From Gammaproteobacteria bacterium (GTDB taxonomy: Bacteria; Pseudomonadota; Gammaproteobacteria; Eutrophobiales; Eutrophobiaceae): a stretch of DNA of 64,000 nucleotides. The position numbers and the translations under genes are program-made. The notes under the pieces were generated by a model, which ran no database searches, had not been told where the DNA came from, and saw nothing but the letters and a program-made list of their open reading frames with translations. Shown one piece after another: positions 5,302 through 54,552 of the stretch. The stretch's first letter is position 1; every line of letters starts with the position of its first letter. The stretch is taken from the NCBI GenBank assembly GCA_947480335.1, contig CANKCB010000006.1, positions 13,148 to 77,147 of the forward strand, read 5' to 3'.

Positions 5302-5868
5302 CTACGTCTTTGGCAACGTCACTCCGGTCTGGCCCTGATACTTGCCACCCCGATCCTTGTACGACGTCTCGCATACTTCATCGGATTCGAAGAAAATCAT
5401 CTGCGCCACACCTTCGTTCGCGTAGATTTTGGCGGGCAAGGTCGTGGTATTGGAAAATTCCAGTGTCACATGTCCTTCCCACTCCGGCTCCAGCGGCGTG
5501 ACATTGACGATGATGCCACAACGGGCGTAGGTGGATTTGCCCAGACAAATTGTCAGAATATTTCTCGGGATGCGAAAATATTCAACCGTACGTGCGAGTG
5601 CAAATGAATTCGGTGGAATGATGCAGACATCCGTATCCAGATTAACAAAGCTGTTTGAATCAAAGTTTTTTGGATCGACTATGGATGAATTGATATTGGT
5701 AAAGATACGAAACTCGGTAGCACAGCGAACATCATAACCGTAGCTCGATGTTCCGTAGGAAACCAGTTTTTTGTCGCCTTGCTGCTTGACCTGCCCCGGT
5801 TCAAACGGCTCGATCAAACCATGCTCTTTTGCCATACGGCGGATCCATTTGTCCGATTTAACGCTCAT
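5302..5868 (-). CDS. dcd: dCTP deaminase
   Basis: [24 protein letters not shown]... is typical of Dcd. Start taken at the second Met of the ORF. Confidence 0.85.
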
Positions 5869-5901
5869 GCTCCTCACCCATCCAAATTAATTAAACACAA
5901 T

Positions 5902-5947
5902 CCTACCACTCCCCTCACTCCTCTCCCCTCTCCCCTCTCCCCTCACA
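5902..5947. repeat. C/T-rich intergenic repeat, (CCCCTCT)3-containing; G4-capable on minus strand
   Basis: CCACTCCCCTCACTCCTCTCCCCTCTCCCCTCTCCCCTCAC between apbC and dcd. Confidence 0.5.
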
Positions 5948-5949
5948 TC

Positions 5950-7041
5950 TTATATATTCTCAACCACAATTTTTGGAAACCTGCCGCTGTAGTCTCTGGA
6001 CTTCAATGCGAGCTGGGCGGCGGCCTTGCGGGCGATGGCACGATAATTCAAGGTAATGGCCGATTCCGGCGCCAGAGCGACGGTTGGTTTACCAACATCC
6101 ATACCTTCACGTATAGAGATATCGAGCGGCAAAGATCCCAGTAAGTCGACACCGTATTGTCTGGCCATTTTATCGCCACCACCACTACCAAAGATATGTT
6201 CCTCGTGACCGCAGTTACTGCAAATGTGGGTACTCATGTTTTCAACAATACCCAACACAGCGACCTCAACCTTCTGGAACATCTTCAGTGCCTTGCGCGC
6301 ATCCAGCAAGGCAATATCCTGTGGTGTGGTTACTATAATTGCACCGCTCACGGGGATTTTCTGGCACAGGGTCAGTTGTATATCACCAGTACCCGGTGGT
6401 AGGTCAATAATCAGATAATCCAGATCCTGCCAGTTCGTATCTGCCAGCATTTGTTCCAGCGCGGAAGTCACCATCGGCCCACGCCAGATCATCGGCGTTT
6501 CCTCATCGATCAGGTATCCAATGGACATGGTTTGCAAACCATAGCTGATATTGGGTTCCAGCTTTTTACCGTCGATGCTTTCAGGTTTCTTGTAACAACC
6601 CAGCATTCTGGGCTGGCTGGGCCCGTAGATATCTGCATCCAGTATCCCGACTTTTGCCCCTTCGGCCTGTAGTGCCAGTGCCAGATTCGCTGCGGTAGTA
6701 GATTTGCCGACACCACCCTTACCGGAGGCAATCGCAATGGTATTTTTCACATTTGCGAGTGGTTTGACGCCTTTCTGTACAGCATGTGAAGTAATACTGG
6801 CATCCAGTTCAACCTGCACCTGCAGTCCACTTGCCAATGACTCTACGGCCCGGACAATATTGGCAGACAGCTCCTGGCGATACCCCTCTGCCGGGTAACC
6901 TAACCCTATCGAAATCAGTATCTGTCCAGACTGGATTCGAACATCATTGACGACCTTCGCGCTCATCAGGTCTTTACCCAGATTGGTATCGACTACTGTT
7001 GCCAGAACGGCTTCGATTTGTTCACGGTTTACTTCAGGCAT
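5950..7041 (-). CDS. apbC: Fe-S cluster carrier ATPase ApbC/Mrp (NBP35 family)
   Basis: 363 aa with Walker A GKGGVGKSTTAANLA and the CxxC of the Mrp family. It lies divergent from metG, as in E. coli mrp-metG. Confidence 0.85.
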   Translation of the reverse strand: MPEVNREQIEAVLATVVDTNLGKDLMSAKVVNDVRIQSGQILISIGLGYPAEGYRQELSANIVRAVESLASGLQVQVELDASITSHAVQKGVKPLANVKNTIAIASGKGGVGKSTTAANLALALQAEGAKVGILDADIYGPSQPRMLGCYKKPESIDGKKLEPNISYGLQTMSIGYLIDEETPMIWRGPMVTSALEQMLADTNWQDLDYLIIDLPPGTGDIQLTLCQKIPVSGAIIVTTPQDIALLDARKALKMFQKVEVAVLGIVENMSTHICSNCGHEEHIFGSGGGDKMARQYGVDLLGSLPLDISIREGMDVGKPTVALAPESAITLNYRAIARKAAAQLALKSRDYSGRFPKIVVENI

Positions 7042-39906: not shown

Positions 39907-40701
39907 CTAAATTGCCACCGGAGCGGCGATATGTGCCTGTGGCTGGTAATTGACCAGTTCAAAATCTTCAAATTTAAATTCAAAAATCGATTTGACCTGC
40001 TCATTAATTTTCATTTGTGGCAATGCTGTCGGTTGCCGTTGTAATTGCAAGTCCGTCTGCTCCAGATGATTGATATACAGGTGCGCATCGCCGAGCGTAT
40101 GCACAAAATCGCCATAGCCCAATCCAGTGACCCGAGCGATCATCATCGTCAGCAATGCATACGAAGCAATATTGAACGGCACGCCAAGAAATATATCTGC
40201 ACTGCGTTGATACAGCTGACAGGACAATTTTCCGTCAGCGACATAGAACTGGAACATGGTATGACAAGGCGCCAGCGCCATTTTGTCGATATCGGCAACA
40301 TTCCAGGCACTGACAATTAAACGTCTGGAGTCCGGTGTCTTGCGAATTTGATCAATCACCATACTGATCTGGTCAATTACCTTGCCGTCCTTGCCCTGCC
40401 AGGAACGCCATTGCGCACCATAGACCGGGCCCAAATCACCGTTCACGTCAGCCCATTCGTCCCAGATGCGAACCCCGTGCTGTTTCAGATAGGCAATATT
40501 GGTGTCGCCCTGCAAGAACCAGAGCAATTCGTGGATGATTGATTTGACGTGCAACTTCTTGGTGGTCACTAACGGAAAGCCTTCATTCAGATCAAACCGC
40601 ATCTGGTAACCGAACACGCTCAAGGTACCGGTACCGGTACGATCGGTTTTGCGGGTACCGTGTTCGCGCACATGGCGCATCAGCTCGAGGTATTGTTTCA
40701 T
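39907..40701 (-). CDS. thyA: Thymidylate synthase
   Basis: [36 protein letters not shown]... 264 aa ThyA. Confidence 0.9.
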
Positions 40702-41486
40702 GCCTTGGGGACTCGTTTATATGCCAGCACCAGCAGTATACCACCGACCAGAATCATCGGCGTGGACAGCACCTGCCCCATGGTCAACCAGCCACCGGCC
40801 AGATAACCAATGTTCGCATCCGGCTCACGCACAAATTCGACCAGAAACCGGAAAATGCCATATAACAACAGGAACAAGCCAGACACGGCCATGGTCGGGC
40901 GTGGCCGCGAGGAAAACAACCATAGCACCGTAAACAGCACCACGCCTTCAAGAAAACATTCATATAACTGCGAGGGATGACGCGGCAGATCCCCGGCTCC
41001 CGGAAACACCATCGCCCAGGGTACGGTTGATGGAGCGCCCCACAGTTCCGCATTGATGAAATTACCGATACGGCCAAAACCCAACCCTATCGGCACGACC
41101 GGGATCATGAAATCACTGATATGAAAATAACGTTTCGAATAGGTACGTCCAAACAGAAAAAGAGCCACCGCAACGCCGAGCAGACCACCGTGAAACGACA
41201 TGCCGCCATGCCAGATTTTGAATACGTCGAGTGGATGATCCAGATAATATGGCAGGTTATAAAACAATACAGAACCGAGCCTGCCACCGAGGATCAGACC
41301 AACCGCGCAATTAAAGACCAGATCGGATACCTGCTCACTGGTCCAGCTACCGGCAGAGGCTCTGGCACGACGTTCCAGCAAAAACCAGGCTGTGCTCAAA
41401 CCGGCCAGGTAGGTCAGACCATACCAGCGTATCTGGACGAGGCCCAGATCCAGCGCAATCGGGTTTATTTGGGGATAGTCGATCAT
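40698..41486 (-). CDS. lgt: Prolipoprotein diacylglyceryl transferase
   Basis: Polytopic membrane protein. Lgt signature GRxGNFINxELWG and the folA-thyA-lgt neighbourhood. Confidence 0.9.
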
Positions 41487-41523
41487 CGTGGTGTCAGTTT
41501 AACACGGGAAGGTGCATAAACGT

Positions 41524-41560
41524 GTGAAGGGTAAGGTGTGAGGTGAGAGGGGTAAGGTGA
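41524..41560. repeat. Member of the same CTCAC/TTACCCCTC repeat family (G-rich on plus strand)
   Basis: GTGAAGGGTAAGGTGTGAGGTGAGAGGGGTAAGGTGA between lgt and the DUF255 gene. A GCCCCGGGGC palindrome lies adjacent. Confidence 0.45.
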
Positions 41561-41621
41561 AACGTCCGCCCCGGGGCTGAATCGTGTAGAATTCACCCAT
41601 GAATACATACAAAGAGTCTCC

Positions 41622-45698: not shown

Positions 45699-45720
45699 TC
45701 AGTTAATTGCGAGGGGCAGG

Positions 45721-45792
45721 ATTAACGTCCTGCCTCTCCACCTTACTCCTCACCCCTCGCTCCTCACTCCTCACCCCGTAAGGTATCTATAC
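45721..45792. repeat. Member of the same C/T-rich repeat family, preceded by a hairpin
   Basis: CCTGCCTCTCCACCTTACTCCTCACCCCTCGCTCCTCACTCCTCACCCC between convergent pckG and pgi. Hairpin GAGGGGCAGGA-TTAACG-TCCTGCCTCTC at 45704-45730. Confidence 0.5.
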
Positions 45793-45794
45793 CC

Positions 45795-47438
45795 CTACGA
45801 TCTATTTCCGTTTACCTTTCGATACAGGCTGATTAATGCCTCGGTAGACGCATCAAACCGGTCAGCGTAGTCATCTTCGGTCAGGCGGCTGTAGATTCGG
45901 TTGCCGATGACCTTGCCCAGTTCAACGCCGTATTGATCAAACGCATTGATGTTCCAGATCACGCTTTGCACGTAGACCTTGTGTTCATATAGCGCAATCA
46001 GCGCACCGAGCGATTCAGGCGTGACTTGTTCCATCACGATCATATTGCTAGGGCGATTACCGGGCATCTGCATATGCTCGGCCAGTTCAGCGGCCCTGGC
46101 CAGCTTCTGGCCCGCAACAATTAAATCTGCCTGGGCCTGCTCGCGGGTTTTACCGGTCATCAATACGTTCGATTGAGCCAGACAATTGGCGACCAGATAC
46201 GGATGGTGGCTGTCATTCGCCGAATCCGGTGTCAGCGCCAGAATAAAATCGGTCGGGATAAATTGTGTCCCCTGATGCAACATCTGGTGAAACGAATGCT
46301 GACCGTTGGTTTCTACCGTTCCCCACAATACGCTTGCCGTCTGGTAATCCACCGGACGGTTGTCGATACGAATCGATTTGCCGTTGCTTTCCATGTCCAG
46401 CTGTTGCAGGAATTCCTGCAGGTAACGCAGATGATGTATATACGTCAAGACAGCCAGCGTACGGGTGTCCCAGAAATTGATATACCAGATTCCGAGCAGT
46501 CCCAGTAATACTGGCAAGTTTTGCAAAAACGGAGTGGTCAAAAAATGCTGATCCATTCTCGACGCGCCACGACGCAAGCGGTTGAAGTTGTCCATACCAA
46601 TACTGAACGCAATCGGCAGACCAATCGCTGACCAGAGCGAATAACGACCCCCGACCCAGTCCCACATCGGCAGGATGTTCTGCCGTGACACACCGAATTT
46701 TACCGCCTTGTCCGGACGCGACGTGACCGCGATAAAATGACGACCAAAATCCGCTTCCGTTTTGGCAATGCTGGCAGTCCACTCTCTGGCCGTTTTCGCA
46801 TTCTGCAGTGTTTCCTGCGTCGTGAAAGATTTCGAGGCGATGATGAATAATGTCGTGTCCGGCAACAATGCGCTGAGCACGCTGGACAAGTCTTCACTGT
46901 CAATATTGGAAACGAAATGACAGTTTACGGAACCATCATTAAATGCAGCCAGCGCCTCGGTGGCGAACATGGGCCCCAGATGTGAACCACCAATACCCAG
47001 ATTGACAATATCGGTGATCGCCTTGCCGGTACATCCTTTCCACTCACCGGAATGGACCTGCTCTACCAGTGATTTCATCTGCGCCATCACAGCTTCGATT
47101 TCTGCCAGATGGGGTGAACGCCCGGTAAAATCCCGCAAGGCTGTATGCAGTGCCGGACGGTCTTCCGTCGTGTTGACATGCGCACCGCTAAACAATGCCG
47201 CGATTTTGTCCTGCAGCCCGCTGCTTCTGGCTGCACCAGTCAACAGATCCAGCGTTGTAGAATTGATCAGGTTTTTGGAATAATCCAGCGTCAGTCCTGC
47301 GGCACTCGCGTGCATACGGGCATAGCGATCTGTATCTTGCGCAAACAGCTCGGATAGACTGGTCTGTTGTAACAGATCGCGCTGTCTGGCCAGTTCCTGC
47401 CAGATGGCAGAATCGTTTGGTTTAAACGGATTACTCAT
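45795..47438 (-). CDS. pgi: Glucose-6-phosphate isomerase
   Basis: 547 aa with PGI family signatures (..GGRYSLWSAIG..). Confidence 0.9.
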   Translation of the reverse strand: MSNPFKPNDSAIWQELARQRDLLQQTSLSELFAQDTDRYARMHASAAGLTLDYSKNLINSTTLDLLTGAARSSGLQDKIAALFSGAHVNTTEDRPALHTALRDFTGRSPHLAEIEAVMAQMKSLVEQVHSGEWKGCTGKAITDIVNLGIGGSHLGPMFATEALAAFNDGSVNCHFVSNIDSEDLSSVLSALLPDTTLFIIASKSFTTQETLQNAKTAREWTASIAKTEADFGRHFIAVTSRPDKAVKFGVSRQNILPMWDWVGGRYSLWSAIGLPIAFSIGMDNFNRLRRGASRMDQHFLTTPFLQNLPVLLGLLGIWYINFWDTRTLAVLTYIHHLRYLQEFLQQLDMESNGKSIRIDNRPVDYQTASVLWGTVETNGQHSFHQMLHQGTQFIPTDFILALTPDSANDSHHPYLVANCLAQSNVLMTGKTREQAQADLIVAGQKLARAAELAEHMQMPGNRPSNMIVMEQVTPESLGALIALYEHKVYVQSVIWNINAFDQYGVELGKVIGNRIYSRLTEDDYADRFDASTEALISLYRKVNGNRS

Positions 47439-53343: not shown

Positions 53344-53875
53344 ATGCCGATTGTGTCACAAATCAACCTGTTAAAGAAACGTCGTACCAAAATTGTGGCC
53401 ACACTGGGGCCGGCTTCATCAACACCGGAAATCATCACACAACTGGTGCTATCCGGCGTCAATGTGTTTCGTCTGAATATGTCACACGGCGACCATGATT
53501 TTCATCGCAAAAGTTACAAGCATATCCGTTCGATAGCTGAAACTACCGGCCTGCCAATCGCTATACTCGCCGATTTATGCGGCCAGTTGCTGTGCCCAGT
53601 TTACCGCACTGCTAGGCGGGCCTGAAATCGACGTGCCGGCTGGCTATAACCAGATTGTGTACGAACCAAAATATCCGCTTAGCAAGGACAAGAAGCGGTA
53701 TATCACCGTTACCGGCACTGAAAAATCCATGCTGCCAGTACCCATGCCTGTCAGCATGATGATCTGGAGTGGACCGGGTTCTGATGCTGACGTAATCAAG
53801 ATTGGTTCTGCTTATGAGGCGGCCACCAAACATCGTATACCGCCACCGGACTTCGGACCACTGGCAACAGAATAA
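53344..53875 (+). pseudogene. pyk: Pyruvate kinase remnant (N-terminal ~75 aa intact, then frameshift and unrelated sequence)
   Basis: RRTKIVATLGPASSTPEIITQLVLSGVNVFRLNMSHGDHDFHRKSYKHIRSIAETTGLPIAILADL matches the Pyk N-terminus. The next frame gives GGPEI... and then shows no Pyk similarity. Total coding potential is under 180 aa versus about 480 expected. Confidence 0.6.
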
Positions 53876-54044: not shown

Positions 54045-54074
54045 TCTCCTCACTCCTTACCCCTCACCTTAACC
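54045..54074. repeat. Member of the same C/T-rich repeat family
   Basis: TCTCCTCACTCCTTACCCCTCACCTTAACC at the 3' end of the DUF934 gene. Shares CTCACTCCT and TTACCCCTC with the other copies. Confidence 0.45.
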
Positions 54075-54552
54075 TATACACCGGCAAGGCGCCATCCGCG
54101 GCAGTCTGATATTTGACAGTAAAGTCATTGAAAGCCTTCAATGCATCTTCGATATCCTTGTCCTTGCGGATAAAGAACGAATTGAAACCACAGCGCTTCA
54201 TATAGAACAACTGATCCCGCAAGACATCACCAACCGCGCGCAGGTCGCCTTTAAATCCATAACGGTCACGCAACAATCTTGCATGACTATAACAACGTCC
54301 GTCCTTGAAGGCGGGGAAATCGAGAGCAATCAGGTTGAACTTGCCAATATGAGTGGCGATATCTTCAATCTTGTCTTCACCATTCAGGCATACCGCAAGC
54401 TTGCCGCGATGATTCGCCAGCTTGTCCTGGTTTTGTTGCCAGTATTTAAATGGCAGAATCAAGTCACCGTCTGGAATTGGCTGATCCGCTGTTACGGTAT
54501 CCACTCTGGTCCAGCTATCTTCAAGAATCTGATTATCCTTAATCACGCGCAT
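54064..54552 (-). CDS. DUF934-domain protein (sulfite-reductase-associated)
   Basis: 162 aa and conserved DUF934 architecture. Sits immediately downstream of the nitrite/sulfite reductase gene, as in many proteobacteria. Confidence 0.65.
   Translation of the reverse strand: MRVIKDNQILEDSWTRVDTVTADQPIPDGDLILPFKYWQQNQDKLANHRGKLAVCLNGEDKIEDIATHIGKFNLIALDFPAFKDGRCYSHARLLRDRYGFKGDLRAVGDVLRDQLFYMKRCGFNSFFIRKDKDIEDALKAFNDFTVKYQTAADGALPVYRLR

Follow-up and report, generated by a model that had tools for sequence, protein, structure and literature searches.

Dispersed head-to-tail arrays of a degenerate G-rich heptanucleotide next to genes of an uncultured gammaproteobacterium

Tandem arrays of G-rich heptanucleotides are known from Xanthomonas, where the unit is GGGAATC, and from Nostoc PCC 7120, where it is GGGGA(C/T)T (Rehm et al. 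2015, PLoS One 10:e0144275; PMC4692102). These simple sequence repeats (SSRs) amount to about 185 copies per genome, are 89-93% intergenic and are made of heterogeneous units, four being the preferred number, and convergent inverted pairs occur among them. The open reading frame (ORF) found at the 5' side of the G-rich strand is "almost exclusively" the nearer one (28 vs 160 nt), in any orientation and with overlaps to stop codons included. Array length varies between species, the neighbours are housekeeping genes with no bias towards a functional class, and no function has been identified (PMC4692102). Other bacterial heptamers include the three heptanucleotides of Calothrix PCC 7601 denominated short tandemly repeated repetitive (STRR) sequences, as far as they are cited in the same paper, and the TAACTGA direct repeats of marine Beggiatoaceae, cyanobacteria and Bacteroidetes (MacGregor 2015, PMC4679880). 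Heptanucleotides are also reported, by the two papers that cite the survey, as the most abundant class of the long simple sequence repeats (LSSR) of 5-11 nt (Mrazek et al. 2007, via PMC4679880 and PMC4692102). The DNA described here is a stretch of 64,000 nucleotides (assembly GCA_947480335.1, contig CANKCB010000006.1, positions 13,148 to 77,147), referred to at its full length as the window, from an uncultured gammaproteobacterium. Four C/T-rich sites in it make up a dispersed family of short head-to-tail arrays of one degenerate heptamer. An earlier note on this DNA had found the family unlike any it could recognise. The kind is a known one, that of the G-rich heptanucleotide SSRs (PMC4692102), and the unit sequence alone differs. 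There is little doubt that the arrays belong to the heptameric SSR family, and RGTRAGG, or CCTYACY on the complementary strand, is a new unit within this already described class, which is hereby extended to an uncultured gammaproteobacterial lineage.

The consensus unit CCTYACY, RGTRAGG on the G-rich strand, is repeated three to six times at each site, and the register is one and the same at all four. Array 1 (5906-5947, G-rich strand minus; oligonucleotide GAGGGGAGAGGGGAGAGGGGAGAGGAGTGAGGGG) is made of about six units, which read GTGAGGG GAGAGGG GAGAGGG GAGAGGA GTGAGGG GAGTGGT on the minus strand. Array 2 (41523-41564) has its G-rich strand on the plus and its pyrimidine strand on the minus side, and includes about five or six degenerate units. 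Array 3 (45741-45775, G-rich strand minus) has five units, CCTTACT CCTCACC CCTCGCT CCTCACT CCTCACC on the pyrimidine strand, and array 4 (54048-54068, G-rich strand minus) has three, GGTGAGG GGTAAGG AGTGAGG on the G-rich strand. Tandem Repeats Finder reports a period of 7 at 5909-5944 (site 1; unit CTCCCCT, 5.1 copies) and at 45741-45774 (site 3; unit CCTCACT, 4.9 copies). The same two sites are the only ones standing out in a lag-7 autocorrelation scan of the window, in which no other period is higher. The pyrimidine strand of the arrays is about 57% C, is devoid of G and is unstructured. The four sites exist as the earlier note had described them, sequences included, and the three motifs named there are confined, within the window, to these sites: CTCACTCCT to 5914, 45763 and 54049, CTCACCCC to 45749 and 45770, TTACCCCTC to 54057 on the plus and 41547 on the minus strand. 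The period-7 tandem structure of all four sites had been overlooked.

The family is strongly enriched over chance. Four arrays of at least 21 nt are found in the window, where 300 first-order Markov simulations give 0.017 on average, and none was found in 804 kb of unselected bacterial DNA, which came from a metagenome scan with PckG and includes relatives at no more than 77% identity. The 14-mer CCTYACYCCTYACY, with up to two mismatches allowed, has 16 matches in the window, where 2.64 are expected and the maximum in 100 shuffles is 7; 14 of the 16 fall in the four sites. All the sites are located in the 13.9% of the window which is outside long ORFs, site 4 overlapping the last 5 nt of one of these. 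The idea that the arrays are fortuitous stretches of low-complexity C/T-rich sequence, in favour of which nothing can be said beyond the shortness of site 4 (21 nt), is refuted by these figures (4 vs 0.017, 16 vs 2.64, none in 804 kb) and deserves practically no credence.

On the G-rich strand, the 5' ORF is nearer to the array than the 3' ORF at all four sites, the respective distances being 2/37, 36/57, 19/42 and -5/172 nt. The same polarity is found well outside this genome. When 185,579 species genomes were scanned for three strict units, at least 120 loci were retrieved, and all statements made here and below about other genomes concern the matches listed. These come from Planctomycetota, Cyanobacteria, Bacteroidota, Firmicutes, Campylobacterota, Actinobacteria and several proteobacterial classes, and feature 3-26 units per array; no locus related to the window is found among them. 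Cultivable carriers of CCTCACT arrays in this set include Oceanisphaera litoralis, Bowmanella denitrificans, Halomonas olivaria and Pseudoxanthomonas gei. Of 132 arrays collected from many phyla, 61 are nearer to the 5' and 22 to the 3' ORF (median distances 19 and 95 nt), and in 104 arrays from viral contigs the pattern is the same, 49 to 24; the counts are approximate, since crude ORF calling misassigns strands in high-GC loci, as exemplified by L082, where fpg is probably the real gene. The 5'-ORF polarity of Xanthomonas and Nostoc thus holds for a different unit, in many phyla and in two independent collections. In most arrays the 5' end of the G-rich strand, which is the 3' edge of the pyrimidine strand, is flush with a gene, and the other edge is typically 40-160 nt away from the next gene. 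Genes encoded on the G-rich strand end at or inside the array, the stop codon being at 10 nt or less in 35 of 60, and these stops are often the TGA or TAA of the first array units. Genes encoded on the pyrimidine strand start 0-20 nt from the array in 16 of 41 instances. Ten array-adjacent genes were checked against Pfam. CYTH, CarA, NosL, HisS, FtsX permease and YrdC genes end inside arrays (...SEE*, ...SKE*, ...GEEA*), and CarB, DinB, formyltransferase and epimerase genes start 2-6 nt after arrays, with no Shine-Dalgarno (SD) sequence. Where an array has an inverted partner, a purine array is followed by a pyrimidine array in 15 cases, and the reverse order was found once. A gene ending inside an array and an inverted pair can both be seen in the carA-carB spacer (about 820-1380) of locus L023, from a Sulfuricellaceae metagenome-assembled genome (MAG): carA ends inside an array (...VRSEE*), and about 500 nt on a purine and then a pyrimidine array form an inverted pair, which ends 6 nt before the carB ATG, an SD motif being absent there.

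In the loci retrieved by the scan the family has about 64 additional arrays, and other heptamers form about 50. The latter arrays (loci L005-L124) are perfect, have at least three copies and include units such as CCTATCT, TTAACTA, CCCAACT, CAGCACT and CATTCAC; 17 arrays of period 8 are found in the same loci. In cyanobacterial loci, CCTCACT arrays are located beside arrays of other heptamers. No heptamer array of any unit was found in the 804 kb of control DNA, and the comparison indicates that some genomes are rich in heptamers generally. Several long arrays are located at contig ends, which suggests assembly breaks. Annotators should expect stop codons supplied by arrays, C-termini of the ...SEE* type and contig breaks at long arrays.

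The arrays are stable within the species and turn over between species. The window is matched exactly by metagenome contigs and by one MAG. Its lineage is assigned to the gammaproteobacteria only through protein hits to MAGs labelled 'Gammaproteobacteria bacterium' and through 52-57% identity to Pseudomonas and Cellvibrionaceae; genomes with ApbC 72-100% identical were retrieved. Each of the four sites is identical in 4-5 conspecific contigs, array 2 being found in four, and no copy-number polymorphism was detected among the 4-5 contigs available per site. The strain which retains the ancestral gene order (L211) also features array 4. In a relative with 98.1% nucleotide identity the length of array 1 is kept and the displayed flanking spacer is identical; three changes are found within 21 nt of the array, and each replaces one type of family unit with another. 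In two sister lineages (L426 and L427, ApbC 83-84% identical) apbC and dcd are 0-1 nt apart and no array is present. In a relative at 76% (L429) the two genes are separated by an unrelated AT-rich spacer of 92 nt. Likewise, the array is lacking from the pgi-pckG spacer of a sister species (Pgi 81% identical), which measures 54 nt, versus 96 nt in the window. The relative carrying P0020 was compared by gene coordinates alone. The birth of an array is pictured concretely by the cysG locus. In a relative with ApbC 78% identical, six units run from the cysG stop codon on (GAT GGG TGA GGAGTGAGGAGTGAGG..., also given as GAT GGG TGA GGAGTGAGGAGTGAGGTGTAAGGGGTGAGGGG), and the orthologous site of another lineage features only the seed GATGGGTGAGG. 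The comparison of the six units with the seed indicates that arrays grow in place from a G-TGA-GG stop codon context and turn over between species, and at the sequence level points to expansion by slippage in situ. Two-unit proto-arrays are found in sister-species contigs, AGTGAGGAGTAAAA right after the dcd TAG (L427, 2201-2214) and AGTGAGGCGTGAGC 3 nt after the pckG TAG (L209, 4474-4487), and may be seeds for future arrays.

The likeness to the heptamers of Xanthomonas and Nostoc is extensive. In both cases 7-nt units with degenerate positions are arranged in tandem, with a G-rich strand bias; arrays are scattered, with one in about 27 kb there and one in 16 kb in the window (four in 64 kb), and are about 90% intergenic; they are nearer to the 5' ORF of the G-rich strand, whatever the ORF orientation and with overlaps to stop codons. 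Convergent inverted pairs, a mode of four units, housekeeping neighbours and variation of unit number and sequence between related genomes are also shared. The differences concern unit and host. The unit is RGTRAGG and neither GGGAATC nor GGGGA(C/T)T, and the strings GGTGAGG, GGGGTGA, GAGGAGT and CCTCAC are absent from Rehm et al. 2015 (PMC4692102). Most RGTRAGG units have GG or a single GGGG, so that most arrays cannot form a G-quadruplex (G4) of three tetrads; four or more tracts of at least three G are found at site 1 only, with a third loop of 10 nt. The host here has a GC content of about 49%, and the RGTRAGG unit is found in many phyla. A literature search by sequence strings returned irrelevant eukaryotic papers only. 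The STRR are likewise intergenic tandem heptamers, present in many copies per genome and of unknown function, and differ because their units are others and because the window has one unit family only. The STRR heptanucleotides of heterocystous cyanobacteria were reportedly described by Mazel et al. in 1990, with the units CCCCAGT, TTGGTCA and CAACAGT. TAACTGA repeats are also intergenic direct repeats of a heptamer (2-6 copies), are spread patchily across phyla, have stop codons in the unit and are often located directly upstream of start codons lacking an SD; their unit is not G-rich and a leaning to translational regulation has been proposed for them, whereas three of the four arrays here follow stop codons. 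The LSSR, in so far as the citing papers describe them, are the general category to which the arrays compare, and polymerase slippage favouring 7-nt units has been proposed as their cause; as described there, they form a statistical category with no defined unit or positional rule. Contingency loci based on phase-variable SSRs, such as the tetranucleotide repeats of Haemophilus and Neisseria, are also short tandem repeats prone to slippage. Unlike these, the arrays in the window lack copy-number polymorphism among conspecific contigs, have degenerate units and housekeeping neighbours, and are outside 5' coding regions.

Taken as a whole, the family is probably a genome-specific one of G-rich heptanucleotide SSRs, expanded by slippage in situ and having incidental effects. 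A short G-rich seed at an ORF edge, typically the stop codon context G-TGA-GG, would be the starting point, and the 7-nt unit would be duplicated in place by replication slippage, which we infer to be the generating mechanism; the arrays would be neither mobile elements nor structured RNAs. Gain, loss or conversion of units, together with point mutations, would make arrays turn over on a between-species timescale, and arrays would be tolerated only where they adjoin the 5' ORF of the G-rich strand. Effects in cis are most likely incidental. The array would supply a stop codon at site 4, would place an unstructured stretch, rich in G and free of C, immediately past the stop codons of apbC and pgi at sites 1 and 3, would be part of the 81-nt spacer separating apbC and dcd at site 1, and would abut the hairpin between the convergent pckG and pgi genes at site 3. 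We rather incline to think that the arrays have no dedicated function. Some points weigh against this explanation. Conspecific contigs show no copy-number polymorphism by which slippage could be seen directly; the genome is covered for 64 kb plus about 15 kb only; about 33 of the 81 nt separating apbC and dcd are non-repeat, so that the spacer exceeds the array; and transcript starts or ends are commoner at G4-forming than at control repeats, a hint of activity (PMC4692102). Moreover, the 5'-ORF polarity, which holds whatever the ORF orientation, is not explained by simple slippage and neutral drift, and could result from selection or from a polar mutational process.

The G4 potential of site 1 had been presented as a textbook case. 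Four GGGG runs are indeed found on the minus strand, but the loops of 3, 3 and 10 nt fail the strict rule; the canonical motif (four tracts of three or more G, loops of 1-7 nt) has no match on either strand of the window, and site 1 matches only if loops of up to 12 nt are allowed. A G4Hunter analysis, which had been suggested as a check, makes this site the best G4 candidate in the window (score 2.24). The minimum free energy (MFE) predicted for the RNA G4 is -22.3 kcal/mol, and no homopurine run of the window is longer than the one in this site (27 nt, 5918-5944), which features a mirror repeat of 22 nt. These features would suit arrays working as G4, or H-DNA/i-motif, elements that act on the adjacent genes by tuning their translation, their mRNA decay or the boundaries of their transcription, as would the modal array of four units across phyla, and GGGAATC repeats are known to form G4 in vitro, with transcript ends enriched at G4-capable repeats (PMC4692102). 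Such a role is unlikely. Sites 2-4 have at most two runs of three or more G and no predicted G4, and one of the four GGGG runs of site 1 is lost in the 98.1% relative; G4 capability does not hold as a feature of the family, and G4 formation, judged from the sequence, is a property of one copy, neither family-wide nor conserved. The unit most common across phyla, AGTGAGG, has GG runs only, and repeats unable to form G4 have an equal positional bias (PMC4692102). G4 predictions at such arrays should not be taken as evidence of function. The likeness to repetitive extragenic palindromes (REP) and to bacterial interspersed mosaic elements (BIME), proposed in the earlier note, is limited to what the arrays share with these sequences of enterobacteria, both being short, dispersed, intergenic and often located at gene 3' ends. 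REPs are imperfect palindromes of about 35 bp which form stable stem-loops and are linked to RAYT transposases, whereas the window arrays are direct tandem repeats with no palindrome. Sites 1, 2 and 4 do not fold better than shuffles (z-scores -0.26 at site 1, +0.49/+0.83 at site 2, -1.27/+0.09 at site 4). Rfam 15, at the gathering score, has no match in the whole 64-kb window, families of tRNAs, rRNAs and riboswitches included, and both REP/BIME sequences and structured RNAs have been discarded on these grounds. The only strong hairpin (45711-45738) is beside array 3 and not within it. A mobile palindromic element, REP/BIME-like or resembling MITEs (miniature transposable elements with inverted repeats), might seem in keeping with the dispersion of the copies and with the about 12% of arrays in other genomes which have an inverted partner able to form a hairpin. 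It is a very improbable origin, given the direct repeats and their shuffle-level folding; no similarity beyond the heptamers is visible in the flanks of the four copies, which share no conserved ends or target-site duplications, and one array grew in place from the cysG stop codon seed.

A role in translation has also been considered. Stops in three frames (TGA/TAA) combined with SD-like GGAG/GGGG sequences would end the run of stray ribosomes and hold the 30S subunit for re-initiation; in the opposite orientation, a pyrimidine leader free of G, of starts and of stops would replace the SD. RGTRAGG is in fact TRAGGRG permuted cyclically; some real genes end inside arrays and others start 2-6 nt after a pyrimidine-sense array without an SD; on the sense strand, sites 1, 3 and 4 come after stop codons. 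Most units of site 1 (GAGAGGG), however, contain no stop codon, GGGAATC repeats have the same polarity and contain none either (PMC4692102), and arrays are absent at the orthologous junctions of sister lineages. In viral contigs, 79 stretches of the unit were counted, against 61 and 46 of composition-matched permuted heptamers, nearly as frequent, and 21 and 16 of units of mixed composition; the permuted controls resemble an SD too and show some overlap with one another, which makes this a weak test of unit preference. TRAGGRG, a stop codon plus an SD, is by the same weak test only modestly favoured in viral contigs, and has been dropped as a uniquely favoured universal unit. All in all, a translational element is rather improbable, and slightly more so is a Rho-utilisation or transcript-boundary element, in which a C-rich, G-free transcript would load Rho and block antisense entry into the ORF, or attenuate sense transcription. 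The composition and lack of structure of the pyrimidine strand (about 57% C, no G) would be suitable, the ORF which this transcript would run into is flush with the array, and array 3 comes directly after the pckG hairpin, which has no U-tract. Typical rut sites are longer than the arrays, which measure 21-42 nt, and the orientation relative to flanking genes is mixed (++ 35, -- 25, +- 20, -+ 19, approximate counts as above). Less improbable than these, and still doubtful, is the view that RGTRAGG and other G-rich heptamers are polar ORF-edge elements common to many phyla, seeded at stop codons and retained for a function, or else are the footprint of a polar mutational process. If so, the function could be the marking of transcript or translation boundaries, via three-frame stops and SD-like capture, or via R-loops or G-rich pausing; the polar process could be, for example, the deletion of DNA on the 5' side of G-rich repeats. 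Either would account for the placement next to the 5' ORF whatever its orientation. An SSR family expanded by slippage in situ is nonetheless the explanation that we favour.

The genes flanking the arrays are as follows. Array 1 is located, as the earlier note had it, in the apbC-dcd intergenic region, and its G-rich strand is the sense, RNA-like one. On this strand, apbC (5950-7041, minus; NCBIfam NF008669, E = 5.8e-129) is the 5' and dcd (5302-5868, minus; TIGR02274) the 3' neighbour. The array begins 2 nt past the apbC stop codon and ends 37 nt ahead of the dcd ATG, in a spacer (5869-5949) which is of 81 nt both in the window and in the 98% relative. The ribosome-binding region of dcd, GGGTGAGGAG, is itself one family unit. 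Array 2 is in the 135-nt spacer between the divergent lgt and DsbH-like thioredoxin genes, 36 nt from the ATG of the former and 57 nt from that of the latter. Its 5' neighbour on the G-rich strand is lgt (40698-41486, minus; TIGR00544), in opposite orientation, and no SD motif is visible in the region (41487-41522) upstream of the lgt ATG. Just beyond the array in the divergent spacer, at 41568-41577, there is a perfect GC palindrome, GCCCCGGGGC. The rule that copies sit at gene 3' ends or between convergent genes, stated in the earlier note, is accordingly valid for sites 1, 3 and 4, all just 3' of a gene, and fails at site 2, which is between divergent 5' ends.

Array 3 is located between the convergent pckG and pgi genes, 19 nt past the pgi stop codon and 42 nt from that of pckG. 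Its G-rich strand is the sense strand of pgi (45795-47438, minus; NF001211), which is the 5' neighbour. A 12-bp stem-loop (45711-45738, not assigned to either strand) is found in the same spacer, and its 3' arm runs into the array. The 102-nt segment 45696-45797 (plus strand), which includes the hairpin, has an MFE of -27.7 kcal/mol (z = -3.8). No U-tract follows the hairpin on either strand, and a scan for consensus terminators does not call it; from the predicted fold, it may terminate transcription non-canonically in both directions or serve to stabilise RNA 3' ends.

At site 4, a DUF934 gene (54064-54552, minus; PF06073), which is located downstream of a NirA/sulfite-reductase-like gene and is the 5' neighbour of the array, has as its stop codon the TGA (54064-54066) of the first unit. 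The window has a deletion of about 7.3 kb in this region relative to a conspecific strain (ERZ1079234 contig, loci L211 and L205), with a junction at about 53577-53584 and 8 nt of microhomology. The array was considered as the breakpoint of this rearrangement and rejected, the junction being about 470 nt away and the array being already present in the undeleted strain. The deletion took most of an amidase gene, a sigma-70 family gene, a TonB-dependent receptor gene and most of the pyruvate kinase gene, and left an N-terminal remnant of pyk fused to a C-terminal remnant of the amidase gene (ORFs 53344-53625 and 53633-53875).

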